A DNA stretch of 30,084 nt from a virus (IMGVR_UViG_2908572912_000002); one strand, 5' to 3'; counted from the first letter of the stretch, positions 1 to 28,666 are shown. Translations and numbers: made by a program. The notes: a model not told the origin generated them from the sequence alone.

Positions 1-90
1 TCACTCTGCCAGATGGCGCAATGCCATCTGGTATCACTTAAAGGTATTAAAAACAACTTTTTGTCTTTTTACCTTCCCGTTTCGCTCAAG

Positions 91-265
91 TTAGTATAAA
101 AAAGTTGAATGTGAAACGGTAAAAACAATTAATATCAACGGCTTATAATTGATTCAGTCTAAAAAATAGACTGCATAATGCTACAAAACACAACATATCC
201 AGTCACTATGAATCAACCACTTAGATGGTATTAGTGACCTGTAACAGAGCATTAGCGCAAGGTGA
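91..265. other. attR: attR: lambda-type att core (ttagtataaaaaag at 91-104) with chromosomal B' flank (cgtttcgctcaag, 78-90) and phage P arm; left prophage boundary
   Basis: 15-bp core repeated at 28740-28754 (14/15 identical); flank matches E. coli attB B' arm as recalled; P-arm-like AT-rich sequence follows. Confidence 0.8.
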
Positions 266-329
266 TTTTTTTGTCTTCTTGCGCTAATTTTTTGTCAACA
301 CACTGGGTTAGCTGAATTTACAACCACGC

Positions 330-551
330 TCAGTATCTCGATAAGCGCAGAGAAATGATGCAGTGGTGGGCGGATTGGCTTGATGAAAAAGTGGAGTAAT
401 CCGGACCGTACTTCTTTATCCAGGCATAAAGGCTGTGGGTGGTGATATCGAGACGTGTTGCAACGCTGGCAACAGAATAACCGCGATCAATAACCTGTTT
501 GACTGCTTCAGTTTTAAACTCTTCGGGATAACGCTTACCGCTCATGGGCAC
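330..551 (-). pseudogene. IS3-family transposase OrfA, N-terminal HTH fragment (homology ends after ~50 aa)
   Basis: Translation MPMSGKRYPEEFKTEAVKQVIDRGYSVASVATRLDITTHSLYAWIKKYGPD resembles IS3-family OrfA HTH, then non-homologous tail; SD-like aagagagg upstream. Confidence 0.6.
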
Positions 552-611
552 CTCTCTTTAAGCCATCTTAAATGACTCTGAGGTGTCTGTTAAACCCGTG
601 GCGATTCAAAA

Positions 612-1061
612 CTGCGTGTTACGTTCGCCCTGGACTGTTGCGATCGTGAAGCCATAGACTGGGCCGCAAGCACGGGAGGTTACGATAAAGCGACAGTGCA
701 GGATGTCATGTTAGGAGCGATAGAAAAACGCTTTGGCGATAAAGTACCGGAACAGTCCATCCAGTGGCTGACAGATAACGGTTCAGCGTATAGAGCGCAT
801 GAAACACGGCAGTTCGCCAGAGAGTTGAATCTGGAGCCCTGCACAACGGCAATCAGCAGTCCTCAGAGTAATGGAATGGCAGAAAGGTTCGTGAAAACGA
901 TGAAGGAAGACTACATCGCGTTCATGCCGAAACCGAATGTAAGAACGGCATTGCATAATCTTGCAGTGGCGATCGAACATTACAATGAAAACCATCCGCA
1001 CAGTGCGCTGGGTTATCGCTCTCCGCGAGAATATCGACGTCAGCGGGTAACGTTAACTTAA
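612..1061 (+). pseudogene. IS2-like transposase OrfB, C-terminal integrase-core (rve/DDE) fragment lacking its 5' two-thirds
   Basis: Frame open from ~612 with no start: [42 protein letters not shown]...[10 protein letters not shown]...[11 protein letters not shown]...[14 protein letters not shown], resembling the C-terminus of IS2 InsD as recalled. Confidence 0.65.
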
Positions 1062-1102
1062 GATACACCCCCTGTCTGGAAATAAGGGGGCAAGAACAAT
1101 GA

Positions 1103-1855
1103 TCAGATTCCCTGGTGAGTAAGAATTTTACTTTCTGAACTCCTCTGAGAGTATTGACTTGGAGAAACACCAAAATAACGTCTAAATACATAAGTAAAGT
1201 ATGAGACACTGGCATAACCACAGACCTTAGCTACTTTACTAATAGGATAACAACGAGTGCTGAGTAAATATTCAGCCATTTGCATCCTCTCATCAAGTAT
1301 GATCTTACTGAATGATACCCCCTCTTCTTTCAATTTCATCTTTAGTAAACTTTCGCTGAGATATAATCTTGATGATATATCCTTAAGACGCCATGGTGCA
1401 GATAAATCCGTATGAATAATCGTTTTAACTTTAGCCCCTGTGCTTTTCAAACATCCAAACAGAAATACTCCAAATTGTTTTTCAGAAGAAAATGCAGAGA
1501 GACATGTAAAAGCAATAGACTCATCAAAAATTTCTATGTATTCAGCACAGTGATTAGCCCAACTAATTAATCCTTTAATTAAACTGAAGTCAGCAAAGTT
1601 TATTTTTAAATAAGATGGATATTCCCTACAATCAGAAATATCCCTTAAGTTATTAGCTTTCAAATAGCGACTAATAAACTCAGCGCCAAAATCCGCCACT
1701 ATCACTCTTTCAGGATATGTCAGGAAAAAATCTCTAGAGCTAGAGTCGACAAGTACAGATGAACCTCTCTCCAGAAACACACTCTCTTTTCCGAAATAAA
1801 CATCAAAGGACTCCAAAATCAATATAACTGAACATGTAGTTGCCATATCATCCAC
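1103..1855 (-). CDS. AraC-family transcriptional regulator, AppY-like (paralog of 10804-11544)
   Basis: 250-aa ORF; C-terminal AraC HTH (ISSRLYLSESLLKMKLKEEGVSFSKIIL...VAKVCGYASVSYFTYVFRRYFGVSPSQY); low-GC coding sequence. Confidence 0.8.
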   Translation of the reverse strand: MDDMATTCSVILILESFDVYFGKESVFLERGSSVLVDSSSRDFFLTYPERVIVADFGAEFISRYLKANNLRDISDCREYPSYLKINFADFSLIKGLISWANHCAEYIEIFDESIAFTCLSAFSSEKQFGVFLFGCLKSTGAKVKTIIHTDLSAPWRLKDISSRLYLSESLLKMKLKEEGVSFSKIILDERMQMAEYLLSTRCYPISKVAKVCGYASVSYFTYVFRRYFGVSPSQYSQRSSESKILTHQGI

Positions 1856-2067
1856 CCAATTTAACTGAAACCTGGATGAAGTATATGCATATAAAGTTCA
1901 CTTTGCCAAACTTCAGTATAAAAAACCACATAAAAAATAGGGTGTGATAAAAAATACCGTAACAATAAAGCAAAGGATTATAAAATCCGTTACAGTTACA
2001 AATGATACTCAAGAAACAATTCCTTAGGAAAAACTTATTTACAGCCAATAAGGGTAATGACTCGAAC

Positions 2068-2571
2068 TTATTGATAGTGTTTTATGTTCAGATAATGCCC
2101 GATGACTTTGTCATGCAGCTCCACCGATTTTGAGAACGACAGCGACTTCCGTCCCAGCCGTGCCAGGTGCTGCCTCAGATTCAGGTTATGCTGCTCAATT
2201 CGCTGCGTATATCGCTTGCTGATTACGTGCAGCTTTCCCTTCAGGCGGGATTCATACAGCGGCCAGCCATCCGTCATCCATATCACCACGTCAAAGGGTG
2301 ACAGCAGGCTCATAAGATGCCCCAGCGTCGCCATAGTGCGTTCACCGAATACGTGCGCAACAACCGTCTTCCGGAGCCTGTCATACGCGTAAAACAGCCA
2401 GCGCTGGCGCGATTTAGCCCCGACATAGCCCCACTGTTCGTCCATTTCCGCGCAGACGATGACGTCACTGCCCGGCTGTATGCGCGAGGTTACCGACTGC
2501 GGCCTGAGTTTTTTAAGTGACGTAAAATCGTGTTGAGGCCAACGCCCATAATGCGGGCAGTTGCCCGGCAT
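2068..2571 (-). CDS. insB: IS1 InsB (transposase frame, normally expressed as InsAB' by -1 frameshift)
   Basis: 167-aa ORF overlapping insA 3' end in -1 frame; ...[31 protein letters not shown]... Confidence 0.9.
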
Positions 2572-2765
2572 CCAACGCCATTCATGGCCATATCAATGAT
2601 TTTCTGGTGCGTACCGGGTTGAGAAGCGGTGTAAGTGAACTGCAGTTGCCATGTTTTACGGCAGTGAGAGCAGAGATAGCGCTGATGTCCGGCGGTGCTT
2701 TTGCCGTTACGCACCACCCCGTCAGTAGCTGAACAGGAGGGACAGCTGATAGAAACAGAAGCCAC
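2490..2765 (-). CDS. insA: IS1 InsA (transposition inhibitor / N-terminal part of InsAB')
   Basis: 91-aa translation [43 protein letters not shown]... matches IS1 InsA as recalled. Confidence 0.95.
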
Positions 2766-3453
2766 TGGAGCACCTCAAAAACACCATCATACACTAAATC
2801 AGTAAGTTGGCAGCATCACCAGCCTTCTTGAGGCTACCACCTGTTTTCAGGTGTCATTCAGACGTGATTTGCCCCAGATTGGGAAAGCACGCTTTTTTCT
2901 CAGCTATCGTCCTCTTATTTTGCCGTTACATTTCTTTTTGCACTCTAATGATTAATTTACAATAATAATATCGGTAATTATTGAGTAATAATAAATTGAT
3001 TATTGCAAATGTAATTTAATTCCATCTTCGCGTTATATTCCAATCTTTAATCTCCGCATGGAACAAGTTGCATGCGTGACTATATTAAGACAACTTATAA
3101 CCACCAAAACATTTGCTTTGCAAGCAAAAACAGTGACCATTGACTCTAAGAAAATTCCGATCTATTGTTAGGGTCATCAAAGTTACTTAACAGTATTCCG
3201 AAATGAAAATACAAAGCAAGCTAATTGTCTTATTAAACATTATTATTGCATTTATATTATTTGAGCTTTTAGCTCAAAAATTTGGTTTGAGTACATTATT
3301 TTAAAGCAAGATAAACAATATCGGGCACTCTAGTTTTTATAATTAACAATTAAACGTCCATGAAATGTTATTTACTTTTCTTCGCTATTGTCATATCTTA
3401 ATATAGTGGCTTACGCCACTCTACTTTCATCACATTTTGTACGTTTATGTACT

Positions 3454-3486
3454 CGCCATGAAGCTCTTTCATGGCGATTTTTTATT
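3454..3486 (+). terminator. Rho-independent terminator (9-bp stem cgccatgaa/ttcatggcg, 5-nt loop, then attttttatt)
   Basis: Perfect inverted repeat 3454-3476 followed by T-tract; lies in an ORF-poor AT-rich region. Confidence 0.6.
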
Positions 3487-3569
3487 CTTAATCCAAGAAC
3501 ATACTCCCTACCTATAGCAAAATCACTTTTTTAACAAAAGAATAACGTATTTAGGTAATCATTACGAAT

Positions 3570-3749
3570 TTACCCTATAGGTGCTACTGGCCATTCAATA
3601 TCCGGTGCAGTTGTTGTATTAACACGGTTCAGCAACACCCGATACTTCTTCCAGGCTTCCAGCAACGAAGTTTCTTCCTCCGTTGCGATTTCCAGCTCAA
3701 CAACAGTCTGAACGTACCAGGAACAGCCTCCTTCAGGGCTTGAAGGATA
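3570..3749 (-). pseudogene. tfa: tail fiber assembly protein (Tfa) 3' remnant, in frame directly after the stf stop codon
   Basis: Minus-strand translation after the stf TGA: ...[42 protein letters not shown], the conserved C-terminal motif of Tfa proteins (TfaR-like); no start codon. Confidence 0.55.
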
Positions 3750-6700
3750 TCAATGTTCGCTTCCTGTTAACTGCCCGACAAGTGCAACCAGTTCGCTTAC
3801 CTGATTTTCCAGAGTGCTGATCCGGGTGCCTGCTGTTGCCAGATTTTTACGTAGCGTTATGTTTTCCTCTTCCAGCGCGGTAACGCGACCATCTGTTTCA
3901 CGGGCGACCTGAACAAGTAACCCCGTCACGGCGGCGTAGTCAACATTCAGATAACGTGTTTCTTCACGTAATTCATTGCCGTCAACCGTTGGTCCCTGCA
4001 ACTCTTCACCGTAATGAGTAAACGATCCCACAGCTTCTGGTATCGCCTCCATTACTTCCTGTGCAATAACGCCAGCATAAGGCATCCCGTTTTCCCTGAG
4101 CGTGTAGGTGTATCCGTTCATTTTACGGATTGCTTTCGTCGCGTCGCTGATAACGAGAATATCGTCTTTAAGGTCGCGGTCTGATGACTGATTCAGCGTT
4201 GTGCAATTAATAGCGCCATTTACATCAAACAACTGGCCTGCTGACGTTTTTTGCGCATAAAACAGATACGCAGCAGACGTTCCAACCTCAAAAACGTTTT
4301 GTCGATCACTTGATCCCCATACTTTTGCGGCAAATGATAGTTCTGTATTACCTAAGTTCTGTAAAACAAAACGATTTCCAGTCCCTGTTTGTTTTGTAAG
4401 AGTTAAATCAACAGTTGAGTTAACCTCATCCTTGTTGATAGTGAGCGCCTGCGCTTTAGCCCCGTTAACAGCACCTGTTTTGAGTTGAACCGCGCCGTCA
4501 TTACCATTTAACAGTATCTCAGCTCCGCTAAAGAAATTTTTTAGCGACAGCATCTTACTTACGCCGACTGATGAACCCAACGCCCACGCGAGAGAATTAC
4601 CGGTGCTATCAAACCCACGTACAAAGCAATCCATTTTGCTATAGTCTGACGTGCTTCCAAGGACATCAATTCGCCCTCCGCCAGATTTTACCGGGTTAGA
4701 TGTGGTTAATGACCTGACAGCAAGATCGGTAGATGAATTGAGATCGTCTACTGTTAGTAATTTCTTCCATTCCTGCGTCGTTCCATTTTCAATTGTTCTT
4801 CCCCAAAAACCGGAATTGCGGCCTCCGAACTGCACAGCATAATTTTTACTAAATTGAACATGAATGCCGCCAAGAACCATAGAACCTGCCGGGCCGTTTG
4901 TACTGCCTGCAATTGGTATAAATTTATTAATGTTATCAGTATGCTGCGTGTTCCAGTCTCGTCCTGTTTTTGTAAGCAGTCCTAATGTCGTGTCGAGCGC
5001 TTCGGTTAAAGTAAGGTTTTTAAATTTAACTGCGCTACTTTCGCCAAGACTTAAGTTGTTTCGCGCATCTTCTACTGTTGTCGCACCTGTACCTCCTTGC
5101 CCAACAGCTAATGGCAACCAGCCAGTGCCATTATGACAACCCCACAAACCAGATTTGGAAACCTGTAAGCGTGGTGCGCCTGAAGAATACGTAGAATATA
5201 CGTAAGTTGTTTCTTTTCCCTCTTCAACCCTTTCTGTTGATACATCTCTCTTCCATTCAGACCAGGTACCGCTTCCTCCTTCATATATTCGTCTATAAGT
5301 AATTCCCGGATTATTATAAGGGTAGTACACCTGAACGCAGGAAGAAGCAGTGTTGGCTCTCGTTTGGAGCACTATTAAAGCGCCCGCCAGACCGATTGGG
5401 TAATTTAATTCTTCTGTTGCGTAAGCGCTCGTTGGTTGTTGATAGAAACCAGAATATTCACCGGTAAGGGTGTTTAGGTCAGTATTAGCAAGGCCAGCTT
5501 TTTGCTCATACATTACCCGCAAGTTCGCACGTGCTTGCTCGATAGTTCTTCCACCAGTACCGCCCTGGGCTAAACCTAACGGAGACCATTGTCCAGAAGA
5601 AGAATCATAAACCCCCCAACTCCCGTTAGTATGGATTTCAAAGAAACGATCACCAGTTGGACCATACATACGAGTTGTTGATTCATTTTGACCAAAGCGG
5701 CTTAATTCATCTCTGCGGGTATGACGTATCCATTGCGGGCCAGAACTTTGGCTGTAAATGTACGAATACAATGATTTTGTATCTGAACCAACAAATAGAC
5801 CGGAATATCTTTTTGTTGACACTTCTGATCTAACTATATAACCAGAAATAAGATTATCACCGGCACTAGACGCTACTGATGGATAACCTTTCGCTGAGAT
5901 GTAAATCCTGACAAATCCAATATAACCTGATGGCTCAACAGAGATATCAGTGCAGGTCATGGCAACTTCACCAAGACCGATATTATCGCCAACAATTACT
6001 TGCGCCTGGTTGCGATAATTAAGTGCGTCCGCCGCAGATTTCGCCGCGTTTGTTTCACTGGATTTAGCATTAGTTTCGCTGGCTTTAGCGTTGGTTTCGC
6101 TGCTCTTTGCTGCTGCCTCGCTATTTTTCGCGTTGGTTTCTGATTTTTTGGCTGCTGTCGCGGAGTTTGCTGATGCAGTTTGTGAGTCTGCTGCCGCCTG
6201 TGCGCTGTTATCTGCATTCGTCTCAGACGTTTTTGCGGCCTTCGCGGAATTTCCTGCCGCCGTTGCCGAGGAAGCTGCACTACTGGCACTTGATGATGCG
6301 TTCGTTTCTGATGATTTCGCTGCCTCTTTTGAGGCCGACGCATCCCGGGCTGAGGTGGCAGCTTCTGACGCTTTCGTGGTCGCGGTGGATGCAGAAGTGG
6401 CTGCTGATTGTTGTGACGCTGCCGCATTCGTTTCTGACGTTTTCGCCGCACCGGCACTGGTAGCCGCCGCGCTTTTTGAGGACTCTGCAGCGGCAGCACT
6501 TTTTGAGGCTTCAGTGGCCTTTGTTGATGCCGTTCCTGCGCTGGAAGACGCTGACTGAGCCGACGAAGCGGCCTGTCCGGCTGACGTGCTGGCTGCACGT
6601 GCTGAATCTGCAGCATCAGTCGCATGGGTTGCCGCCTCACGGGCTGATGTGCTGGCATCGCTGGCTGATTTCTTCGCGGCTGCCGTGTTCTGTGCCACCG

Positions 6701-7061
6701 CGGACGCGTTACGCGCCACCTCTTCCACCATCAGTTCAAAACGGCGCAGAGCCTCCGGACGGGCATCATCCTCCGTCATGGCACCGAGAAAATCATTCAG
6801 CGTACCGGGTCGGGAATCTTCATACACGGTGATGGTCCCGGCATGTGACGGCGGGAATCCTTCCACCAACAGAATAACGCTGTACTGACCGTACTCAACG
6901 TCCATGCTGTAACGCCCGGCTTCATCCGGATTTTCTGAGGCCAGCGTGTTCACCACCACCGTGGTGCTGTTACGTTTTGCTTTCAGCTGGATTGTGCAGT
7001 TCTGTACCGGTTTTCCTGTGCCGTCTTTCAGTACACCTGAAATCTTTACTGCCATATTCAC
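3750..7061 (-). CDS. stf: side tail fiber protein (Stf), chimeric: lambda-like N-terminal anchor, Ala/Ser/Thr-rich repetitive stalk, divergent distal domain with possible C-terminal intramolecular chaperone-like segment
   Basis: 1103-aa ORF; N-terminus MAVKISGVLKDGTGKPVQNCTIQLKA... as in lambda Stf; long SETNA-type repeats; C-terminal ...NGYTYTLRENG...ALEEENITLRKNL... Confidence 0.85.
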   Translation of the reverse strand: MNMAVKISGVLKDGTGKPVQNCTIQLKAKRNSTTVVVNTLASENPDEAGRYSMDVEYGQYSVILLVEGFPPSHAGTITVYEDSRPGTLNDFLGAMTEDDARPEALRRFELMVEEVARNASAVAQNTAAAKKSASDASTSAREAATHATDAADSARAASTSAGQAASSAQSASSSAGTASTKATEASKSAAAAESSKSAAATSAGAAKTSETNAAASQQSAATSASTATTKASEAATSARDASASKEAAKSSETNASSSASSAASSATAAGNSAKAAKTSETNADNSAQAAADSQTASANSATAAKKSETNAKNSEAAAKSSETNAKASETNAKSSETNAAKSAADALNYRNQAQVIVGDNIGLGEVAMTCTDISVEPSGYIGFVRIYISAKGYPSVASSAGDNLISGYIVRSEVSTKRYSGLFVGSDTKSLYSYIYSQSSGPQWIRHTRRDELSRFGQNESTTRMYGPTGDRFFEIHTNGSWGVYDSSSGQWSPLGLAQGGTGGRTIEQARANLRVMYEQKAGLANTDLNTLTGEYSGFYQQPTSAYATEELNYPIGLAGALIVLQTRANTASSCVQVYYPYNNPGITYRRIYEGGSGTWSEWKRDVSTERVEEGKETTYVYSTYSSGAPRLQVSKSGLWGCHNGTGWLPLAVGQGGTGATTVEDARNNLSLGESSAVKFKNLTLTEALDTTLGLLTKTGRDWNTQHTDNINKFIPIAGSTNGPAGSMVLGGIHVQFSKNYAVQFGGRNSGFWGRTIENGTTQEWKKLLTVDDLNSSTDLAVRSLTTSNPVKSGGGRIDVLGSTSDYSKMDCFVRGFDSTGNSLAWALGSSVGVSKMLSLKNFFSGAEILLNGNDGAVQLKTGAVNGAKAQALTINKDEVNSTVDLTLTKQTGTGNRFVLQNLGNTELSFAAKVWGSSDRQNVFEVGTSAAYLFYAQKTSAGQLFDVNGAINCTTLNQSSDRDLKDDILVISDATKAIRKMNGYTYTLRENGMPYAGVIAQEVMEAIPEAVGSFTHYGEELQGPTVDGNELREETRYLNVDYAAVTGLLVQVARETDGRVTALEEENITLRKNLATAGTRISTLENQVSELVALVGQLTGSEH
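6000..6700. repeat. Degenerate tandem repeats encoding the Ala/Ser/Thr-rich (KSSETNA-like) stalk of Stf
   Basis: Reiterated gcgttggtttc/gctg motifs; many spurious overlapping ORFs in all frames in the six-frame track. Confidence 0.7.
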
Positions 7062-7119
7062 CCCACAAAAAAGCCCGCCTGAACCGGCGGGCTGTCATAA
7101 CACTGTGTTACCTGGCTAA

Positions 7120-7659
7120 TCAGAATTTATAACCGACACCCACGATGAAACTGTTGGTACGCCAGTCACCGCTGCCGGAGCCTTCATAAGCGACGTCAAC
7201 GGCCACGGATTCGGTCGGGTTAAACTGCACGCCAGCTCCCCACGCCAGAGACGTGTTGCTGTGGCGACCGTCATCACTTCCGGTCAGCACATCGTGCGTT
7301 TTCCCCTTGTTGTCAGTTACGCGGATATAATCCCCGGAGAAAGTCGAAACACGGCTGTAAGCCATACCCGCCATCGCATACGCGCTGAACCATTCATTCA
7401 CGCGCACAGACGGCCCCGCCATCACGCTGAACCAGCGATTACGCACGGAATCCTCATGCCAGCGGGTATCGCTGTAATGCGTTTTTTGCTCATCTTCAGC
7501 GTTGGCATAACTGAATGACGTAATCAGCCCCAGCGTGTCCGTAAACTCATAACGGTATTTCACGTTAATCCCGTTCAGATTATCGCTGCCGGAAGCGTTC
7601 GTACGGGCATGAAGATACCCTGCGCTCAGCGTGGCCTGCTGCTCAGACGCCGCAGTTCT
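7120..7659 (-). pseudogene. lom: lom-like outer membrane protein (Ail/Lom/PagC family), 5'-truncated (no start codon or intact signal peptide)
   Basis: Frame open upstream of the listed GTG (7563) to 7659: ...ASEQQATLSAGYLHARTNASGSDNLNGINVKYRYEFTDTLG...WRTNSFIVGVGYKF; C-terminal beta-barrel motifs as in lambda Lom. Confidence 0.75.
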
Positions 7660-7859
7660 TCAACCTCCCGGCGCAGCTTTTCGTTCTCAATTTCAGCATC
7701 CCTTTCGGCATACCATTTTATGACGGCGGCAGAGTCATAAAGCACCTCATTACCCTTGCCACCGCCTCGCAGAACGGGCATTCCCTGTTCCTGCCAGTTC
7801 TGAATGGTACGGATACTCGCACCGAAAATGTCAGCCAGCTGCTTTTTGTTGACTTCCAT
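7626..7859 (-). pseudogene. nu1: terminase small subunit Nu1, truncated after ~70 aa (DNA-binding domain only)
   Basis: MEVNKKQLADIFGASIRTIQNWQEQGMPVLRGGGKGNEVLYDSAAVIKWYAERDAEIENEKLRREVEELR matches lambda Nu1 N-terminus, then RLSSRPR* from out-of-frame lom sequence. Confidence 0.9.
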
Positions 7860-7860
7860 T

Positions 7861-8075
7861 GCTCATTCCACGGACAAAAACAGAGAAAGGAAACGACAGA
7901 GGCCAAAAAGCTCGTTTTCAGCACCTGTCGTTTCCTTTCTTTTCAGGGGGTATTTTAAATAAAAACATTAAGTTACGACGAAGAAGAACGGAAATGCCTT
8001 AAACCGGAAAATTTTCATAAATAGCGAAAACCCGCGAGGTCGCCGCCCCGTAACCTGTCGGATCGCCGGAAAGGA
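7861..8075 (-). other. cos: cos site (cosB with Nu1-binding region, cosN cohesive-end sequence aggtcgccgccc at 8037-8048, cosQ side)
   Basis: Reverse complement of the lambda left end GGGCGGCGACCTCGCGGGTTTTCGCTATTTATGAAAATTTTCCGG... present, contiguous with lambda right-end-like ...cgacaggttacg. Confidence 0.85.
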
Positions 8076-8247
8076 CCCGCAAAATGATAATAATTATCAT
8101 CTGCATGTCACAACGTGCATCTACGCCATCAAACCACGTCAAATAATCAATTATGACGCAGGTATCATATTAATTGATCTGCATCAACTTAACGTAAAAA
8201 CAACTTCAGACAATACAAATCAGCGACACTAAATACGGGACAACCTC

Positions 8248-8481
8248 ATGTCAACGAAGAACAGAACCCGCAGAACAACAATCCGCAACATCCGCTTTCC
8301 TAACCAAATGATTGAACAAATTAACATCGCTCTTGATCAAAAAGGGTCCGGGAATTTCTCAGCCTGGGTCATTGAAGCCTGCCGCCGGAGACTGTGCTCA
8401 GAAAAAAGAGTTTCTCCTGAAGCAAACAAAGAAAAGAGTGACATTACTGAATTGCTCAGAAAACAGATCAGACCAGATTGA
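8248..8481 (+). CDS. small hypothetical protein, basic N-terminus, possible DNA-binding (lambda right-end ORF-like)
   Basis: 77-aa ORF MSTKNRTRRTTIRNIRFPNQMIEQINIALDQKGSGNFSAWVIEACRRR...; position between cos and Rz on the strand opposite the late genes. Confidence 0.5.
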   Translation: MSTKNRTRRTTIRNIRFPNQMIEQINIALDQKGSGNFSAWVIEACRRRLCSEKRVSPEANKEKSDITELLRKQIRPD

Positions 8482-8522
8482 AGCAATTTAGATAATCGTG
8501 CAGACTACGCCCCTCATATCAC

Positions 8523-8948
8523 ATGGAAGGTACTACAATGGCTCAGGTTGCCATTTTTAAACAAATATTCGATAAAGTGCGAAATAATTTAAACTATCAC
8601 TGGTTTTATTCTGAACTAAAACGTCACAATGTCTCACATTACATTTACTATTTAGCTACAGAGAATATTCATCTTGTTCTTGAAAACGATAATACGGTTT
8701 TAATAAAAGGACAGGGTAAGGTTGTAAATGTAAGATTTTCAAAAAATAAATGCCTTATAGAAGCCACCTTAAAAGGATTCAAATCAGGAGAGTTATCATT
8801 TTACGAATACAGGAAAAATCTTGCTACAGCAGGGGTTTTCAGATGGATTACAAATATCCACGAAAACAAAAGGTATTACTATACCTTTGATAATTCATTA
8901 CTCTTTACTGAGAACATTCAGAACACTACACAAATATTTCCGCACTAA
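8523..8948 (+). CDS. DUF1398-family protein (YdfO/YbcV-like prophage protein)
   Basis: 141-aa ORF; [42 protein letters not shown]...[24 protein letters not shown] resembles E. coli YdfO/YbcV as recalled; true start may be the internal Met (MAQVAIF). Confidence 0.7.
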
Positions 8949-9439
8949 ATCATAACGTCCGGTTTCTTCCGTGCCAGAACCGGACTCGCTGGCATGATGA
9001 AATATGTGTACCCGGTAACCCCGGTGTGCATCGTTTTTGATTATTCCCGCACACTCGCGCAGAAGGAGTTCCCCGTCGGGCTACGGTCTCTGTTAATACG
9101 GGAATACGGCGACGATACAGCGCATGATGTGTCAGGCTTGAATACCTTTATCCTTTAAAAGGGATATCAGTTAAGTTATCCCGTGTAGGGTATAAACCAT
9201 TATCAAAGCCACTCTGTAGGAAGTGGCTTTTGTAATGGCAATAAAAAGCCCCGCGAATGCGAGGCTAAATCCTGGTATTTGTAATGACTGGTTCTTATCT
9301 CAACGCAGCCCCTTACCGCGCGCAAAATGCTCAATATCAAGCATCAGCAATGAGATGTTTAATCTGGATTCACTCCAGAAGTGAGCACCACCCTGTCTAC
9401 AGAGCCAGATGTGAAGGATGATGAGTAAAATTATCGCTA

Positions 9440-9907
9440 TCATCGAAGGCATTGCGTCCTGATGTATTCCTGAAGCGTTCTCAGTGCTGTTTGGTCGCGG
9501 ATAATTCCGTCCCGGATACCGAGAACGTTTCGTCCAGCAACTGGAGAGAGTTCGACGGTGGCATCATTGCCCATGCCGGAGGCGCTGGAGGTTTCGGCTG
9601 AGGATGGCACAGGGCATTTTCCTTTGACGAGCACCCGACCACCATTATCAAGCTTGCGCCGAAGAGCATCATTTTCAGCTTTCGCATCAGCTAACTCCTT
9701 CGTGTATTTATCATCGAGTGCATCAGCATCACGCTGGCGCTGCTGCATGTCAGTAATGGTGGCGTTCGCCTTCTCCAGTTCACTGGCCTTGTTATCGCGC
9801 TGTTCTTTGTAGGCGATTGCATTATCACGGTAATGATTAACAGCCCATGACAGGCAGACGATGATGCAGATAACCAGAGCGGAGATAATCGCGGTTACCC
9901 TGCTCAT
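9440..9907 (-). CDS. Rz: i-spanin Rz (RzpD-like), N-terminal TM anchor, coiled-coil periplasmic domain
   Basis: ORF 9440-9919; likely start [26 protein letters not shown]... overlapping endolysin stop; downstream of endolysin. Confidence 0.8.
9481..9687 (-). CDS. Rz1: o-spanin Rz1 (lipoprotein, Pro-rich) embedded in the +1 frame of Rz
   Basis: 68-aa ORF within Rz on same strand; lipobox MVVGCSS; proline-rich [16 protein letters not shown]. Confidence 0.75.
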
Positions 9908-10401
9908 TGTTGCCCCCACAAACAGACCTCACGCTCAATCTCACGACGAGTCATCAGGCCTTTCCATTGCTTACCGCCAGCGTATGCCCAGCGACGTAGC
10001 TGGTCACATGCGCCCTTGATATCGCCCTGGTTTATTTTGCGAAGAAGAGTAGATGTTCTGAAATTGCCTGCGCCCACGTTATAGACGAACGAGTAAAGAG
10101 CGCCGCGCGTTGTTTCCGGTATATCGACTTTGATGTACGGGTTAATTTGTCTGGCTACCGTGGCAAGGTCTTTATTCAGGAGGGCTTTGCATTCTGCTTC
10201 GGTATACGTTTTACCGGGAATGATGTCTTTTCCTGTATGCCCGTGACATACAGTCCATACGCCAACGATATCTTTGTATGGTATGTAGCTGACACCTTCC
10301 AGACCATCGTTACCACTTGGGCCAGTGATTAACACTGATGCTATAGCAATTGCTCCGCCACCAATAGCAGCAGCAACGGCTTTTCGTAATGATGGAGGCA
10401 T
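9904..10401 (-). CDS. R: SAR endolysin (T4-lysozyme-like glycoside hydrolase family 24; RrrD/R21-like)
   Basis: 165-aa ORF; N-terminal Gly/Ala-rich SAR segment [20 protein letters not shown]; ...[21 protein letters not shown]...[20 protein letters not shown]... resembles E. coli RrrD. Confidence 0.9.
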
Positions 10402-10616
10402 TATTCACCTCTCGCAGCCTTGCGCTTATCTTCTTTAATCTTGAAATAAAGGTTTGTCAGGTACGTCAGCAGGCCAAATACCAAGCTACCCAGCACACCT
10501 ATTGCTGCCCACTGTGAGGGCGTGACTTTATCGAGCAGCTGTAAAAACCAGTAGCCAGCACTGCCTGCGGAGGTGCCGTAGGCAATGCCCGTTGTTAACT
10601 TATCCATGGATTTCAT
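10401..10616 (-). CDS. S: pinholin (S21/EssD-like) with dual-start motif (Met1-Lys-Ser-Met4)
   Basis: 71-aa [74 protein letters not shown]; two TMDs; immediately upstream of endolysin. Confidence 0.9.
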
Positions 10617-10803
10617 AGCCTCACCTCCGCAAATAACGGATGGTGTACACGGTTCGGAACGAAGAGGAAAGGTATAGAAGTTACATTAGCGTAAGGCTTG
10701 AACATCTATTCAAAAAGAAAAACGCCGCGATTATTCTGGCGTAGCTGAAAGCATCATACAATTATCAAATACGAAAATTACAAAATCATTAAAACGCATC
10801 ACG

Positions 10804-11544
10804 TTACATCATGTCTTTTTCTAAAAAAAATCTTGATGAATATTGATGGGGAGGAACACCAAAATACCTTCTGAAAACACTTACAAAATATGACGTGTTT
10901 TCATAACCGCATATCTCAGCAACTTTTCCAACAGAATATAAATTGTAGCTTAATAACCTTTCCGCCATCACCATTCGCTCTTCAAGAATTAACTTACTAA
11001 ATGATAAGCCTTCGTGCTTTAATTTTCTTTTTAACAGACTTTCACTCAGATACAGTCTTGAAGATATATCACAAAGTCTCCATGCTGCAGATATATCCGT
11101 GTGAATAATAGCCTTAACTTTACTTCCTAAACTATTAAGACATCCAAATAAAAAACTTTGCACTATTTTCTCTGAAGATAAGATAGCAAGACATGCAAGT
11201 GATATTTGATTTCTAACAAAATCCACAGTTCTGCCATCACAATTCAAGCATGCAATCAAGTTCTTTAACAATGAAAAATCTTCACATTCCACCATCAAGT
11301 ATGCCGGATAAAACCTTCTTACAGAAAAAGGTGAGAGTGTGTTGCTTTTAAAGAAATCATTAACTGTTTTTTCTTCAACATCTACGATCATTACATGATC
11401 TATATTTGATGAAAAAAAATCTTTTAAATTGTAATCAATGAGAACAGCACTTCCTTTTTTAAACAAAATATCTTCTTTACCAATTCGGACATCAAACGAG
11501 TTCAACACCAAAATGATAGAACATATGTATAGCATATTATCCAC
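10804..11544 (-). CDS. AraC-family transcriptional regulator, AppY-like (paralog of 1103-1855)
   Basis: 246-aa ORF; C-terminal HTH ISSRLYLSESLLKRKLKHEGLSFSKLIL...VGKVAEICGYENTSYFVSVFRRYFGVPPHQY; low-GC; AT-rich upstream region. Confidence 0.8.
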   Translation of the reverse strand: MDNMLYICSIILVLNSFDVRIGKEDILFKKGSAVLIDYNLKDFFSSNIDHVMIVDVEEKTVNDFFKSNTLSPFSVRRFYPAYLMVECEDFSLLKNLIACLNCDGRTVDFVRNQISLACLAILSSEKIVQSFLFGCLNSLGSKVKAIIHTDISAAWRLCDISSRLYLSESLLKRKLKHEGLSFSKLILEERMVMAERLLSYNLYSVGKVAEICGYENTSYFVSVFRRYFGVPPHQYSSRFFLEKDMM

Positions 11545-11886
11545 CTGATATCATTGGGGTTACACCAGGTAAGTATAGGTGGAAAATCAATATTCGCCAG
11601 TTCAACAATAAGGAAAATTTCATTGCATCACAAGTATAAAATTATGTATTTAACTCACAAAGACAAATTATTAAACCAATCTGTTATATTATATATAGCT
11701 GCGTGGAATCATAATATTATATATTTTGACTGGCATGTTTACTAACTTTAAGTTGCATCTCAATTGTTTCTTCAGCGTAAACAGACTTTTTATACAAACT
11801 GACACTCTGGGTATCATAGTGTAGTTTTTACGATTGTAAATATCCTGCATGCAGGAACTCATCCTTTTGGATGATATCGCATACAA

Positions 11887-12846
11887 TTAATTTACCATCA
11901 GTCTTAGAGCCAGTTCGTCCGGATAGGGATCGAAGTAATTCTGTGTAAGCAAGTAATCATTAGGATACTCACCCAGATAATGCTTCAGCAGAGTCAACGG
12001 CGCAAGAAGAGGTAATGTGCCAGAACGATAGTTAAGTATAACCTCGCTCAACTCTTTACGCTGGCGTGTACTTAAGTAGTTACTAAAATACCCCTGTATA
12101 TGCATCAGCACATTCGTGTGATTTTTACGTGATGCAGGTTTTCTGAGAATCGCCATCAGCTTATCACGATACACCTCAAAGTATGATTCAAGGTCCGCCC
12201 ACTCGTGTATTGCAGCCACAAATGGTCCCATATCTTTATAGCCTGCCTGACTATGCGCCAACAACTGAAGCTTATAACGACTATGAAAAGCTAATAACTC
12301 TCTTCTTGATAATTTCTCCTTGTAAAGGTGATTGAGCTCATGCAAAGCAAAAACTCTTTCAACAAAATTCTCACGAAGCACTGGATCATGTAATCGCCCA
12401 TCCTCTTCAACCGGTAGCCAGGAAAACTTTTCCATCAAAGTGCTCGTAAATAGTCCCACTCCATCTTTACGACCTCGATTACCATTTTCATCATAGACAC
12501 GCACGCGCTCCATGCCACAGCTGGGAGATTTAGCACAAACCACAAACCCCGATACATCCTTTAATTTGTCCATATAAGAACGACTAAACTCTGTCATTCT
12601 CTCTGTCACATCCTCATTCTGGTCGTGGCTGAAACACATCCGTATATTTCCTTGCGTCGAGCGCACAAGACGTAGAGCAGGACGCGGAACTGGCAGCCCT
12701 ATAGCCATTTCCGGACATACTGGTCTGAATGTTACCCATTCCACTAATTTGTCCATTAAAAAGTCAGCTCTTTTGTGACCACCATCAAAACGAACAGCAG
12801 AACCGGCCAAACAACCGCTGATTCCAATCACAGGTTTTTTTATCAT
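11887..12846 (-). CDS. two-domain DUF523 (TudS-like, putative 4Fe-4S thiouracil desulfidase fold) plus DUF1722 (YbgA-like) protein
   Basis: 319-aa ORF; N-terminal VIGISGCLAG...VRFDGG...RPVCPEMAIGLPVPRP...CAKSPSCGMERV (Cys pattern of DUF523); C-terminal YbgA-like helical region. Confidence 0.65.
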   Translation of the reverse strand: MIKKPVIGISGCLAGSAVRFDGGHKRADFLMDKLVEWVTFRPVCPEMAIGLPVPRPALRLVRSTQGNIRMCFSHDQNEDVTERMTEFSRSYMDKLKDVSGFVVCAKSPSCGMERVRVYDENGNRGRKDGVGLFTSTLMEKFSWLPVEEDGRLHDPVLRENFVERVFALHELNHLYKEKLSRRELLAFHSRYKLQLLAHSQAGYKDMGPFVAAIHEWADLESYFEVYRDKLMAILRKPASRKNHTNVLMHIQGYFSNYLSTRQRKELSEVILNYRSGTLPLLAPLTLLKHYLGEYPNDYLLTQNYFDPYPDELALRLMVN

Positions 12847-13038
12847 ATTCTCCCCCTTGACTAATTCATTAACACATAAACTGTGTAGTGCACGGAATAA
12901 ATTGCCTTTCTGGCGTCATCACTGACAATTTTTCTGTTATGGACTATTCCTAATATAGTATGAAAGTTCTTTAAGTGATCGGTCGTAATCATCTATCTTT
13001 CATACTTACTCTCAACTATCAAAAGTACAGGATTTATT

Positions 13039-13563
13039 ATGAAGTTATGGCCTGTGTTGACTGGCATTGCACTCTCTTTCACTCTTATAGCATGTAAGGC
13101 CCCGACACCACCTAAAGGTGTGCAGCCGATTACAAATTTTGACGCCAACCGCTACCTCGGAAAATGGTATGAAATAGCTCGCCTCGAGAACCGGTTCGAA
13201 CGTGGTCTGGAACAGGTCAGCGCTACTTATGGAAAACGGAACGACGGAGGGATTCGTGTACTTAACCGTGGATACGATCCAACGAAAAATAAATGGAGCG
13301 AGAGCGAAGGTAAAGCATACTTTACTGGAGATACTAAAACTGCAGCATTGAAGGTTTCGTTTTTTGGCCCCTTCTATGGTGGCTATAATGTAATCAAACT
13401 GGATGATGAGTATAAGTATGCTCTTGTCAGTGGTCCGAACAGAGAATACCTATGGATTCTGGCAAGGACCCCAACTATTCCAGATAAAGTAAAAGCAGAC
13501 TATGTGCGAACCGCTCAAAAGTTGGGATTCAATGTCAATGAATTATTATGGGTTAAACAATAA
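13039..13563 (+). CDS. outer-membrane lipocalin lipoprotein (Blc-like)
   Basis: 174-aa ORF; lipobox LIAC; NFDANRYLGKWYEIARLENRFERGLE...GKAYFTG...ALKVSFFGPFYGGYNVI...YLWILARTP closely resembles E. coli Blc. Confidence 0.85.
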   Translation: MKLWPVLTGIALSFTLIACKAPTPPKGVQPITNFDANRYLGKWYEIARLENRFERGLEQVSATYGKRNDGGIRVLNRGYDPTKNKWSESEGKAYFTGDTKTAALKVSFFGPFYGGYNVIKLDDEYKYALVSGPNREYLWILARTPTIPDKVKADYVRTAQKLGFNVNELLWVKQ

Positions 13564-13591
13564 AATCCCTACCCGAAATAATACTTATTAG

Positions 13592-13618
13592 AAAAAAACC
13601 AGCCTTTGGGGAGGCTGG
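13592..13618 (-). terminator. Rho-independent terminator downstream of Q (candidate tR' of the late transcript)
   Basis: Minus-strand hairpin ccagcc-tccccaaa-ggctgg followed by TTTTTTT; ~100 nt after the Q stop. Confidence 0.55.
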
Positions 13619-13718
13619 CTAAATCAGGAAACAAGCTGTTATATGATAATAACTACGTTGCGATTCCAACATTTAAAATGTTAGACTAATGACAATCAGA
13701 CAGCAACTTTTCCTTTAA

Positions 13719-14111
13719 TTATTTCGAACAATCAGCATCCATCTCCAATCGGAGATCCAACACCATCAGCATACCCTCCACTACGCCCTCAGCTTTCTGA
13801 AGCATCCTGCCAACCCAACAATCAGATCGCCCATGCTTACGTGCAAGCGCCATAAAAGTCATGCCGCCGACATAATAGTCCACCAATAAATCATGCAAAT
13901 CGCTGTTGTTCTTTTTCAGACGGGCCATGCACCCGCAAATGATCATCGCGTCATCGTCACAACATTGTGGGCGAGATTTTACTTTTGAAGGAATTAATCC
14001 CTTAAAACCGGCGGCAATGGACGACCAGGTCACATCTTCATGATTATTAGCCGCCCACGCTCCCCAACGCTCAAGAACCATCTGAATATCACGCATCAAC
14101 TTACTCCACAA
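13719..14111 (-). CDS. Q: late-gene antiterminator Q (phage 82/21/DLP12 QuuD type)
   Basis: ORF 130 aa; from internal Met: [62 protein letters not shown]... resembles QuuD; sits between rusA and lysis genes. Confidence 0.85.
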
Positions 14112-19031: not shown

Positions 19032-19063
19032 AATGACTCCTGTTGATAGATCCAGTAATGACC

Positions 19064-19357: not shown

Positions 19358-19436
19358 ATGTAAGTATTTCCTTAGATAACAATTGATTGAATGTATGCAA
19401 ATAAATGCATACACCATAGGTGTGGTTTAATTTGAT

Positions 19437-19451
19437 GCCCTTTTTCAGGGC
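19437..19451 (-). promoter_or_regulatory. nutR: nutR boxB hairpin (gccctgaaaaagggc on minus strand)
   Basis: Plus strand gccctttttcagggc between cro and cII. Confidence 0.8.
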
Positions 19452-19476
19452 TGGGATGTGTAAGAGCGGGAATGTC

Positions 19477-20831
<1,355 letters not shown>

Positions 20832-22943: not shown

Positions 22944-23015
22944 GCGCGGCGTTACCGCATACCAATAACGCTTCACTCGAGGCGTTTTTCGTTATGTATA
23001 AATAAGGAGCACACC

Positions 23016-27104: not shown

Positions 27105-27192
27105 ACCCAATATTACATAACAATCCTCGCACTCGCGGGGATTTATTTTATCTGAACTCGCTACGGCGGGTTTTGTTTTATGGAGATGATAA

Positions 27193-27399: not shown

Positions 27400-27618
27400 A
27401 TGTACTTGACACTTCAGGAGTGGAACGCTCGCCAGCGACGCCCAAGAAGCCTTGAAACAGTTCGTCGATGGGTGCGCGAATGCAGGATATTCCCTCCTCC
27501 GGTTAAGGATGGAAGAGAATATCTGTTCCACGAATCAGCGGTAAAGGTTGACTTAAATCGACCAGTAACAGGTAGCCTTTTGAAGAGGATCAGAAATGGG
27601 AAGAAGGCGAAGTCATGA
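27400..27618 (+). CDS. xis: excisionase Xis
   Basis: 72-aa MYLTLQEWNARQRRPRSLETVRRWVRECRIFPPPVKDGREYLFHESAVKVDLNRPVTGSLLKRIRNGKKAKS. Confidence 0.97.
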   Translation: MYLTLQEWNARQRRPRSLETVRRWVRECRIFPPPVKDGREYLFHESAVKVDLNRPVTGSLLKRIRNGKKAKS

Positions 27619-28666
27619 GCGCCGGGATTTACCCCCTAACCTTTATATAAGAAACAATGGATATTACTGCTACAGGGACCCAAGGACGGGTAAAGAGTTT
27701 GGATTAGGCAGAGACAGGCGAATCGCAATCACTGAAGCCATACAGGCCAACATTGAGTTATTTTCAGGACACAAACACAAGCCTCTGACAGCGAGAATCA
27801 ACAGTGATAATTCCGTTACGTTACATTCATGGCTTGATCGCTACGAAAAAATCCTGGCCAGCAGAGGAATCAAGCAGAAGACACTCATAAATTACATGAG
27901 CAAAATTAAAGCAATAAGGAGGGGGCTGCCTGATGCTCCACTTGAAGACATCACCACAAAAGAAATTGCGGCAATGCTCAATGGATACATAGACGAGGGC
28001 AAGGCGGCGTCAGCCAAGTTAATCAGATCAACACTGAGCGATGCATTCCGAGAGGCAATAGCTGAAGGCCATATAACAACAAACCCTGTCGCTGCCACTC
28101 GCGCAGCAAAATCAGAGGTAAGGAGATCAAGACTTACGGCTGACGAATACCTGAAAATTTATCAAGCAGCAGAATCATCACCATGTTGGCTCAGACTTGC
28201 AATGGAACTGGCTGTTGTTACCGGGCAACGAGTTGGTGATTTATGCGAAATGAAGTGGTCTGATATCGTAGATGGATATCTTTATGTCGAGCAAAGCAAA
28301 ACAGGCGTAAAAATTGCCATCCCAACAACATTGCATGTTGATGCTCTCGGGATATCAATGAAGGAAACACTTGATAAATGCAAAGAGATTCTTGGCGGAG
28401 AAACCATAATTGCATCTACTCGTCGTGAACCGCTTTCATCCGGCACAGTATCAAGGTATTTTATGCGCGCACGAAAAGCATCAGGTCTTTCCTTCGAAGG
28501 GGATCCGCCTACCTTTCACGAGTTGCGCAGTTTGTCTGCAAGACTCTATGAGAAGCAGATAAGCGATAAGTTTGCTCAACATCTTCTCGGGCATAAGTCG
28601 GACACCATGGCATCACAGTATCGTGATGACAGAGGCAGGGAGTGGGACAAAATTGAAATCAAATAA
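27596..28666 (+). CDS. int: tyrosine integrase Int (lambda type), apparently intact
   Basis: 356-aa MGRRRSHERRDLPPNLYIRNNGYYCYRDPRTGKEFGLGRDRRIAITEAIQANIELFSGHKHKPLTARINSDNSVTLHSWLDRYEKILASRGIKQKTL...; full length with C-terminal catalytic region. Confidence 0.97.
   Translation: MGRRRSHERRDLPPNLYIRNNGYYCYRDPRTGKEFGLGRDRRIAITEAIQANIELFSGHKHKPLTARINSDNSVTLHSWLDRYEKILASRGIKQKTLINYMSKIKAIRRGLPDAPLEDITTKEIAAMLNGYIDEGKAASAKLIRSTLSDAFREAIAEGHITTNPVAATRAAKSEVRRSRLTADEYLKIYQAAESSPCWLRLAMELAVVTGQRVGDLCEMKWSDIVDGYLYVEQSKTGVKIAIPTTLHVDALGISMKETLDKCKEILGGETIIASTRREPLSSGTVSRYFMRARKASGLSFEGDPPTFHELRSLSARLYEKQISDKFAQHLLGHKSDTMASQYRDDRGREWDKIEIK

Follow-up and report, generated by a model that had tools for sequence, protein, structure and literature searches.

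AraC-like regulators borne on prophages, amongst them AppY, PatE and PsrA/PsrB, are among the clearest examples of phage genes that rewire core stress and virulence circuits of the host, and, as the first-pass annotation of this locus stated, members of the group are known to influence acid-resistance and virulence regulons (AppY, PMC10057817; PatE, PsrA and PsrB, PMC10877973). That annotation drew attention to two genes of this kind on one defective prophage within the window, the whole 30,084-nucleotide stretch of DNA analyzed here, described them as AppY-like paralogs, and offered either duplication or independent capture as their origin. The locus raises the question of what the two proteins are, how they came to share a prophage and which host functions they might control. 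We consider it probable that the window represents a mosaic att-lambda prophage in which lambdoid recombination joined two PatE-family factors, situated in different moron slots and with a putative role in acid resistance.

The host prophage and its two AraC-family genes

Sequence comparison identifies the element as a defective, mosaic lambda/DLP12-like E. coli prophage at att-lambda (ybhB...ybhC). Its landmarks and the two genes under study are:

1103..1846, minus strand: copy 1, a patE allele, AraC/XylS family, 247 aa, R170M relative to O157 PatE (246/247 identity to Sakai ECs0287; Pfam)
3750..7061, minus strand: tail fibre gene, 1103 aa (PF08400 phage_tail_N, PF13884 Peptidase_S74)
7120..7859, minus strand: deletion joint of truncated nu1 (7626-7859) to truncated lom (7120-7563), from profile coverage
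10804..11535, minus strand: copy 2, an uncharacterized PatE-family AraC/XylS regulator, 243 aa (53% identity to copy 1; Pfam)
19798..20430, plus strand: cI-type repressor (helix-turn-helix and S24 peptidase), 210 aa (HTH_3 and Peptidase_S24 in the matching locus L028)
27596..28666, plus strand: integrase at the ybhC-side prophage end (tyrosine recombinase annotation in the matching locus)
28801..30084, plus strand: host gene ybhC, flank of att-lambda (matching annotated locus)

The locus carrying the integrase annotation is 100% identical to the window over positions 26800-30084, and the lysis genes are DLP12-like. That the prophage is defective, as had been proposed, is evident at the deletion joint: of the 164 positions in the Nu1 profile the truncated gene covers 1-73, the protein being cut at residue 73, and Lom, which has lost its first 52 residues, covers 53-199 of 199; everything from nu1 to lom is gone, and with it all head and tail-shaft genes.

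Both AraC/XylS reading frames are intact and full length on the minus strand of the window. As first listed, the genes were 9 nt longer and reached in-frame GTG codons at 1855 (copy 1) and 11544 (copy 2); 9 nt inside each lies an ATG (1846 and 11535) preceded by the Shine-Dalgarno-like GGTGGA, and it is this ATG that RefSeq uses for both genes, giving 247 and 243 aa. The distance between them, put at 9 kb, measures about 8.95 kb, and the C-terminal helix-turn-helix motifs quoted earlier (ISSRLYLSESLLK[M/R]KLK and FRRYFGV) are found in the translated frames. Genes and upstream regions are AT-rich, as had been noted: GC content is 35.1% and 31.6% in copy 1 and copy 2 and 30.1% and 31.6% upstream of them, against 45.3% for the whole window.

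Paralogy and placement within the AraC/XylS family

In a gap-free BLASTP alignment, 127 of 238 residues are identical between the two proteins (53%, E 4e-89). The DNA-binding domains are 71% identical, and homology reaches beyond the generic AraC helix-turn-helix, since the N-terminal 135 residues alone retain 40% identity (E 2e-34). Because of the 53% identity over the full length together with the 40% identity of the N-terminal domains by themselves, these sequences identify copy 1 and copy 2 as true paralogs, in agreement with the initial proposal. [quoted passage not shown]

In a neighbor-joining (NJ) tree the PatE clade and the copy-2 clade are sisters in 100 of 100 bootstraps, and the Psr clade is sister to the pair. 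Both proteins fall into the PatE family, by homology over the full length including the N-terminal domain and by monophyly with respect to Psr, AppY, YdeO and Gad proteins. Copy 2 is 52% identical to PatE, with which it shares the whole two-domain layout, 39% to PsrB, 30-32% to AppY and 30% to YdeO; copy 1 is 37% identical to PsrB and 28% to AppY. A search of 1.84 billion representative proteins gave just 10 that reached E<=1e-30; the best of them, the intermediate relative P0013, has 64% identity to copy 2 and 55% to PatE.

Of the label "AppY-like", membership in a group of prophage-borne regulators stands, while orthology to AppY does not. Two copies of the DLP12 regulator would be in keeping with the shared broad subfamily, the N-terminal CSV(I/V) motif common to them, the DLP12-like lysis genes and the position of copy 1 after tail-fibre genes at the prophage end, which is also where appY lies in the lambdoid prophage DLP12 of K-12. 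However, identity to AppY stays at 28-30%, the tree places AppY with GadW and apart from both copies, and the best NCBIfam model for both is YdeO (NF007407); we therefore reject AppY orthology as extremely improbable. The YdeO assignment itself fails, with 146.6 and 126.5 bits against an equivalog cut-off of 348. GadX, GadW and YdeO share subfamily and domain layout with both copies but are 25-33% identical to them, score under the NCBIfam equivalog cut-offs and are chromosomal rather than phage-borne. PsrA and PsrB (Z1789/Z2104, secretion regulators of O157:H7) are prophage-borne AraC-like regulators of the GAD system and 90% identical to each other; by this measure of close relation, the 37% and 39% identity to PsrB rules out a Psr identity for either copy. 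The EDL933 gene compared is PsrB, as the published Z2104 primers map inside it; PsrA was not located in the two O157 genomes examined.

The AF2 model of copy 2 (pLDDT 79.7) agrees with membership of the AraC/XylS family. Its DNA-binding domain matches GadX with a target-normalized TM of 0.86-0.89 and superposes on GadX 3MKL, the top solved-structure match (E 2.5e-20), at 1.4-1.7 Å. The best full-length matches to the predicted model are the virulence regulators CsvR, Rns and ToxT (Foldseek E 3e-11 to 1e-6), whose N-terminal domain binds fatty acids; this is a similarity of fold alone, at about 20% identity and a TM of just 0.43, domain orientation being uncertain in the model.

Two different slots: the tail-fibre end and the late operon

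With 246 of 247 residues and 743 of 744 nucleotides identical to Sakai ECs0287 (PatE, Z0321), copy 1 is by sequence PatE itself, while copy 2, at 52% identity, is a paralog of PatE and not PatE. Z0321 is the regulator of CP-933H/OI-8 (PMC2907692, PMC10877973); in O157, PatE activates gadE, gadBC and hdeAB, acting at hdeA between -132 and -45, and lowers LEE expression (PMC10877973). The surroundings of copy 1 comprise:

330..1061, no strand assigned: IS3-family transposase remnants that separate patE from the ybhB-side prophage end, with ORFs 330-551 (minus) and 696-1061 (plus)
625..2052, minus strand: patE module (upstream region, gene and IS3-family remnant), 1428 bp, shared with O157 Sp1/CP-933H
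1847..2052, minus strand: AT-rich patE upstream region between gene and IS1, 206 bp, GC 30.1%, with the Shine-Dalgarno-like GGTGGA
2053..2820, minus strand: IS1, 768 bp, insA/insB ORFs, its insertion lying 206 bp ahead of the patE ATG

The module is 99.2% identical to positions 18898-20323 of the Sakai locus L004; IS1 and the end of the IS remnant mark the two limits of this homology. Copy 1 thus shares with PatE of CP-933H/Sp1 (O157:H7) the gene, the 206 bp upstream (99.2% identity to the region upstream of Sakai patE) and the IS remnant downstream, but differs in R170M, in the IS1 and in residing in an att-lambda rather than a thrW prophage. The matching RefSeq locus labels the ORFs in 330..1061 partial transposase and integrase-core fragments. 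IS1 (99.3% identity to IS1A copies) has removed everything beyond the proximal 206 bp, and the IS1-patE arrangement is present in all ten contexts of the exact protein that were viewed. The placement of patE after the tail fibre genes is common to the window, Sakai Sp1 and phage mEp332. A sigma-70-like match at 1909-1880 is a consensus match only, promoter-like matches upstream of both copies being no commoner than in shuffled sequence.

The sole nucleotide difference from O157 patE turns AGG into ATG at codon 170, within the first recognition helix. Every other allele sampled has Arg at this position, and GadX, GadW, YdeO and AppY have Lys. The residue shares an alignment column with MarA Arg46, which we take to be a DNA-contact residue from the MarA-DNA structure. 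Because M170 replaces a basic residue in this column, copy 1 may bind DNA differently or weakly. R170M is a common natural variant at a likely DNA-contact residue (the exact protein occurs on at least 1000 contigs), so that findings on O157 PatE may not hold for the many strains outside O157 that have this allele.

Copy 2 lies in a different setting:

10401..10616, minus strand: holin S (essD-like), next gene downstream of copy 2 and first of the lysis genes (essD annotation; PF04971 in matching loci)
11536..11886, minus strand: AT-rich intergenic region upstream of copy 2, 351 bp, GC 31.6%
11887..12846, minus strand: ybgA-like gene (2-thiouracil desulfurase domain and DUF1722), cassette partner (PF04463, PF08349)
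13039..13563, plus strand: blc-like gene for an outer-membrane lipocalin, cassette partner, on the strand opposite to the late operon (PF08212)
13597..13620, minus strand: tR'-like intrinsic terminator just downstream of Q (9-bp stem, 5 GC pairs, T run)
13719..14111, minus strand: late antiterminator Q (PF06530, 173 bits)

In lambdoid phages the late-operon moron slot between Q and S is the position of stx and nmpC. Copy 2 occupies this slot, between Q with its tR'-like terminator and S, on the late strand, no other terminator being called in between and none between copy 2 and S; the element at 13597..13620 is a predicted Q-antiterminated terminator. The locus annotated with essD is 99.8% identical over window positions 7649-13988, and the blc-like gene scores 316 bits against the NCBIfam Blc subfamily (cut-off 267). 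Wherever copy 2 or one of its 82-85% variants was seen, the order Q, blc, ybgA, AraC gene, S is kept. Phage IdasGreatGrand, whose complete genome was deposited as that of an isolated phage, has the cassette between Q and the lysis genes. Between alleles the cassette diverges most in 11536..11886, with 66% identity against 90-96% for the flanks; sigma-70-like matches are present in this region but not above chance. Like copy 2, PsrB lies downstream of a late antiterminator (Q-like gene) and upstream of lysis genes, a placement that copy 1 does not share, but its neighbors are tRNAs, a TerB-like gene and a nanS-type esterase instead of blc and ybgA.

The exact copy 2 protein was found on 486 contigs, and copy 2 and its variants are found in 1032 of 5426 complete E. 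coli genomes (about 19%) as well as in phage genomes deposited as isolates. A dN/dS of 0.26 between copy 2 and its 82% variant indicates purifying selection. While copy 1 is already known as PatE, our literature search found no experimental studies of copy 2, its common relative.

One or both genes might nevertheless be idle in this host, copy 1 crippled by R170M and IS1 and both silenced as AT-rich cargo. Both loci have 30-35% GC, which is typical of H-NS-bound DNA; the residue replaced in copy 1 is basic in nearly all relatives, the patE upstream region is truncated by IS1, and at least one genome, Nord1, has a frameshift in copy 2. Yet both frames are intact in the window, the M170 allele is spread over 7066 index blocks without visible decay, copy 2 is under purifying selection, and patE is well expressed in O157, where it depends on RpoS (PMC2907692), and its proximal 206 bp are kept here. 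On balance we regard idleness as a minor possibility and retain two functional regulators as the preferred reading.

Separate origins and a possible role in acid resistance

At the DNA level the two copies resemble each other only within the coding sequence (362 nt at 70% and a further patch of 57 nt), apart from some 10 nt of translation-initiation region upstream of the ATG; the flanks are unrelated. The window is itself a junction of two lineages, positions 1-7651 matching one (99.3%) and 7649-30084 another (99.8-100%), with the breakpoint at about 7649-7651. Close copies (99-100% identical) of each gene exist in phages or prophages without the other: copy 1 is one nucleotide away from patE of a different O157 prophage at thrW, att-lambda prophages without patE carry a 100% identical copy 2, viable phages and phage genomes deposited as isolates carry either gene alone, and none of 22 phage records with a family member has two. 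Since the resemblance ends with the coding regions and viable phages carry either gene on its own, the sequences support separate arrival through lambdoid mosaicism. Duplication inside this prophage or a direct ancestor, followed by divergence, could explain why the copies are each other's closest relatives among characterized proteins and share those 10 nt, but given an amino-acid identity of just 53%, the lack of flank homology, the single occurrences and the two-lineage junction we consider it highly improbable. Of the two origins first offered, independent capture is thus favored and duplication in place is not.

On this reading, recombination between lambdoid phages with different cargo brought together PatE at the tail-fibre end, in its 1.4-kb module between IS1 and an IS3-family remnant, and copy 2 in the slot from Q with tR' to holin S, which PsrB and P0013 occupy in other phages. 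Target genes and expression routes we infer, like the effect of R170M, as follows. Each protein would bind AT-rich promoters of the acid fitness island through its two C-terminal helix-turn-helix motifs and activate transcription. The targets of copy 2 and PatE likely overlap, because their DNA-binding domains are 71% identical and the first recognition helix (SESLLKRKLKH in copy 2, SESLLKRKLKE in O157 PatE) differs at 1 of 11 compared residues, the last. Their inputs, whether signal or partner, probably differ because the N-terminal domains are just 40% identical. Copy 2 would be transcribed with the late operon once Q is made and, in the lysogen, from a promoter of its own.

Alternatively, copy 2 could locally regulate its cargo neighbors, the ybgA-like and blc-like genes, rather than host acid resistance. 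AraC-family genes often adjoin their targets, and the ybgA-like gene adjoins copy 2 and its 82-85% variants in every context seen, even after IS1 rearrangement. However, P0013 directly follows a Q-type antiterminator without ybgA or blc, PsrB has other neighbors in the same slot, PatE has none of these genes beside it, and the recognition helices of copy 2 are close to those of PatE. Moreover, the acid fitness island is a target of all characterized relatives, namely PatE, PsrB, AppY, GadX, GadW and YdeO (PMC10877973, PMC10057817). AppY directly activates gadE, gadY and nhaR (PMC10057817). A local role is accordingly unlikely, and we favor control of host acid resistance.

From the position of copy 2 in the late operon, immediately ahead of the lysis genes, one would expect prophage induction and the control of acid resistance to be linked. 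The Q-dependent late-operon slot is where the Shiga toxin genes sit. Speculatively, and with low confidence, copy 2 might represent a widespread, unstudied PatE-like class through which induction (SOS) switches on the host acid-resistance and virulence regulon, and which may back up or pair with the R170M PatE. For two such regulators on one prophage there is a precedent in DLP12, which carries a second AraC-family gene, ybcM; AppY and YbcM are, however, just 17% identical, unlike the close paralogs described here.

The two regulator genes and their relationship

The first-pass annotation had described two AraC-type reading frames on one strand of this prophage, and both proved to be real genes, located on the minus strand:

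1103-1855, minus strand: copy 1, reading frame as listed, opening at GTG
10804-11544, minus strand: copy 2, reading frame as listed, opening at GTG

In each case an ATG lies 9 nt inside the listed frame (at 1846 and 11535, respectively), preceded by a Shine-Dalgarno-like GGTGGA motif, and it is this ATG that RefSeq annotates as the start in matching loci, so the likely products comprise 247 aa (copy 1) and 243 aa (copy 2). In Pfam, HTH_18 and HTH_AraC each score above the gathering threshold in both copies. The low GC content also holds, with 35.1% for copy 1 and 31.6% for copy 2, and 30.1% and 31.6% in the respective upstream regions, compared to 45.3% for the window. BLASTP aligns the two products without gaps, with 127 identities over 238 residues (53%, E 4e-89). 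This likeness is not confined to the generic helix-turn-helix region: the DNA-binding domains are 71% identical, and the N-terminal 135 residues alone still share 40% identity (E 2e-34). We constructed a neighbour-joining tree that took in AppY, YdeO, GadW, GadX, EnvY and PsrB as well as distant representatives. In it the clades of copy 1 and copy 2 are united in every one of 100 bootstraps, with P0013, the best match to copy 2 in the library of representative proteins, as an intermediate. Alignment and tree together indicate that the two copies are true paralogues, as had been proposed.

The Psr clade is the sister of this group, and AppY pairs with GadW. The identity of copy 2 amounts to 52% with PatE, 39% with PsrB, 33% with GadW, 30% with AppY and YdeO and 25% with GadX. 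Given these values and the tree, the earlier label AppY-like fits the regulators only in a broad sense, as members of the GadX/YdeO/AppY subfamily. The best NCBIfam model for both is YdeO, with 146.6 bits for copy 1 and 126.5 bits for copy 2 against a cut-off of 348. The EDL933 gene compared as PsrB is Z2104, within which the published Z2104 primers map (PMC4763077); only PsrB was used for comparison, because in Sakai Sp6/Sp7 and EDL933 CP-933N, where PsrA was sought, neither annotation nor tblastn revealed any AraC-like gene.

The full-length subfamily of PatE and copy 2 is small. When 1.84 billion representative proteins were searched exhaustively with HMMER, only 10 reached E<=1e-30, the best being P0013 (64% identical to copy 2 and 55% to PatE). 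The word-indexed protein search extended no further than close relatives. Outside Escherichia, the species-representative scan yielded no relatives save one probably contaminated contig of a metagenome-assembled genome. This 3.2-kb contig, from a 'Candidatus Nanosynbacter' bin, carries a 98% match to copy 2 (locus L049, 1160-1879) and almost certainly derives from contaminating E. coli phage DNA.

Copy 1 as PatE and copy 2 as a new relative

Copy 1 differs by one nucleotide from ECs0287 of the Sakai prophage Sp1 (246 of 247 residues identical), which is the sole AraC-type gene in the matching Sakai prophage. The same gene, as Z0321, was described as a putative regulator on prophage CP-933H/O-island 8 with RpoS-dependent expression (PMC2907692) and is the gene named PatE, which activates gadE, gadBC and hdeAB and lowers LEE gene expression (PMC10877973). 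Judged by its sequence, copy 1 is PatE, a regulator already known. The sole change from O157 PatE, AGG to ATG at 1337-1339 (codon 170, minus strand), results in R170M within the first recognition helix. Position 170 is an arginine in all four other patE alleles examined, while the corresponding column holds lysine in GadX, GadW, YdeO and AppY and threonine in PsrB, and aligns with MarA Arg46, which we take to be a base-contacting residue in the MarA-DNA structure. PatE carrying M170 may bind DNA differently or more weakly. The M170 allele is very common, occurring in at least 1000 contigs. IS1 has replaced all sequence more than 206 bp upstream of patE.

With copy 2 the PatE kind gains a new, widespread member, for which the sources checked gave no functional name and a literature search no study. 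Comparison with its 82% variant gives a dN/dS of 0.26, indicative of purifying selection. In strain Nord1 (locus L042, 43860-44584) the gene is annotated as frameshifted, so it decays in some lineages. When the cassette alleles of copy 2 and this variant (10804-11886 and L008 7683-8732) are aligned, the AraC gene is 86.9% identical, the upstream intergenic region 66% with gaps and the flanking genes 90-96%; the divergence hotspot of the cassette is the regulator together with its promoter region.

In the AlphaFold model of copy 2 (pLDDT 79.7), a helical linker joins a beta-rich N-terminal domain to two helix-turn-helix motifs. The DNA-binding domain fits the GadX crystal structure with a target-normalised TM of 0.86-0.89, whereas the full-length matches to CsvR, Rns and ToxT reach E-values down to 3e-11 at a TM of just 0.43. 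The first recognition helix differs from that of O157 PatE in the last of 11 compared residues (SESLLKRKLKH in copy 2, SESLLKRKLKE in PatE), and the second is similar. As the acid fitness island is a target of PatE, PsrB and AppY (PMC10877973, PMC10057817), we infer from the near-identical first and similar second recognition helices that copy 2 and PatE would have overlapping targets there. The greater divergence of the N-terminal domains suggests that the two regulators respond to different inputs.

Two cargo slots on a defective prophage

The window runs from just past ybhB into ybhC, the flanks of att-lambda, and includes int, xis, exo/bet/gam, cIII, N, cI, cro, cII, O, P, rusA, Q, S, R and Rz. 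The elements surrounding the two regulators and the deletion joint are as follows:

625-2052: patE module, 1428 bp, 99.2% identical to Sakai Sp1
2053-2820: IS1, the exact edge of the patE module on one side; an IS3-family remnant is the other edge
7120-7859: nu1-lom deletion joint, Nu1 ending at residue 73 of 164 and fused to Lom lacking its first 52 residues
11887-13563: blc-like outer-membrane lipocalin gene (antisense) and ybgA-like gene, between the tR'-like terminator and copy 2
13620-13597: tR'-like terminator, directly after Q

The head and tail-shaft genes have all been lost, which makes the prophage defective, in agreement with the first-pass annotation. Since cI (19798-20430), Q (13719-14111) and S/R/Rz (9440-10616) are kept despite the nu1-lom deletion, induction should lyse the cell without producing phage. 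Positions 1-7651 are about 99.3% identical to one lineage (strain VE-V10-F) and 7649-30084 are 99.8-100% identical to another (strain A23), so that the prophage is also a mosaic. We found no complete genome with this arrangement: the nu1-lom joint occurs in one piece in none of the complete E. coli genomes, and the best coverage of positions 1-12000 by any of them was at most 84%. The truncated Nu1 protein returned no record, look-up of the truncated Lom led to unrelated prophages, and none of the species-representative genomes contains the 50-mer at the junction.

PatE occupies a position after the tail fibre gene, at the ybhB-side end. The order IS1-patE-IS remnant recurs in every one of the ten contexts obtained for the exact M170 protein, eight of which adjoin ybhB, and in phage mEp332 patE follows a tail-fibre assembly gene. 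The tail fibre gene itself (3750-7061) encodes an S74 chaperone domain and a long repetitive stretch rich in Ala and Ser, the latter with a GC of 0.57 and a strong AT skew at 6001-7000; the exact protein occurs in two public draft contigs only, each breaking just upstream of the gene.

Copy 2 sits between Q and the holin gene S (10401-10616), in a cassette of identical layout in all contexts of copy 2 and its 82-85% variants. The ybgA-like gene, combining a 2-thiouracil desulfurase domain with DUF1722, and the blc-like gene travel together in phages as cargo, placed after Q and ahead of the lysis genes. P0013 directly follows a different Q type, with neither blc nor ybgA, and PsrB, like copy 2, comes shortly after a Q-like gene; what is conserved is therefore the slot rather than the neighbouring cargo.

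Lambdoid lysis and structural genes are transcribed from pR' via Q antitermination. The same cassette lies between Q and S in IdasGreatGrand, whose complete genome was deposited as that of an isolated phage, and given this placement late transcripts would have to cross copy 2, with Q-antiterminated transcription from pR' predicted to run through it to S. Terminator prediction made no call in the stretch from copy 2 to S, and promoter scans gave matches no better than in shuffled sequence. Besides their use for annotation, these observations provide a simple experimental lead in the form of a PatE paralogue linked to Q and a natural variant in a recognition helix.

Several further features of the prophage were recorded. 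The single Rfam match of the window is the lambda cIII thermoregulator RNA at 23003-23061 (RF01804, 88.5 bits). A 293-aa reading frame of about 37% GC lies downstream of N (21505-22386), and a frame of 158 aa that opens like a signal peptide occupies the rex position downstream of cI (20355-20831); neither has a match in Pfam, NCBIfam or PADLOC. A 164-aa nin-region frame (16623-17117) scores marginally above the cut-off for the VasI family of type VI secretion (26.7 bits, cut-off 26.5).

Duplication or independent capture

The first-pass annotation had offered duplication or independent capture as the origin of the pair; its observation is confirmed and its interpretation was right in part. 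Against duplication inside the prophage, the DNA likeness of the two loci is confined to the coding regions, where a 362-nt stretch of the DNA-binding half is 70% identical and a further patch of 57 nt surrounds the start; the flanks are unrelated DNA, and each gene is 99-100% identical to copies occurring without the other. We therefore reject it; the evidence points to independent capture. None of the 22 phage-collection records with a family member contains two. Of 5426 complete E. coli genomes, 657 contain patE and 1032 contain copy 2 or its variants, with a union of 1608; by inclusion-exclusion about 81 genomes carry both anywhere, counted per genome and not per prophage, compared to about 125 expected under independence, so the two are not enriched together. 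In EC21Z-083, a sampled genome with two places for the family, patE resides on a prophage elsewhere whose Q-S region is without copy 2, and the att-lambda prophages of Nord1 and XJ5.2 carry copy 2 without patE. The joint presence of both genes is a product of phage mosaicism. DLP12, with AppY and YbcM, provides a precedent for two AraC-family regulators on one prophage (PMC10057817).

Cargo at the two slots differs among att-lambda prophages (L035 18484-19815 and the comparison loci L027, L029 and L030). Others with the copy-2 cassette carry a MASE4-GGDEF (diguanylate cyclase-like) gene beside ybhB in place of patE, and further ones an nmpC-type porin in place of the copy-2 cassette.
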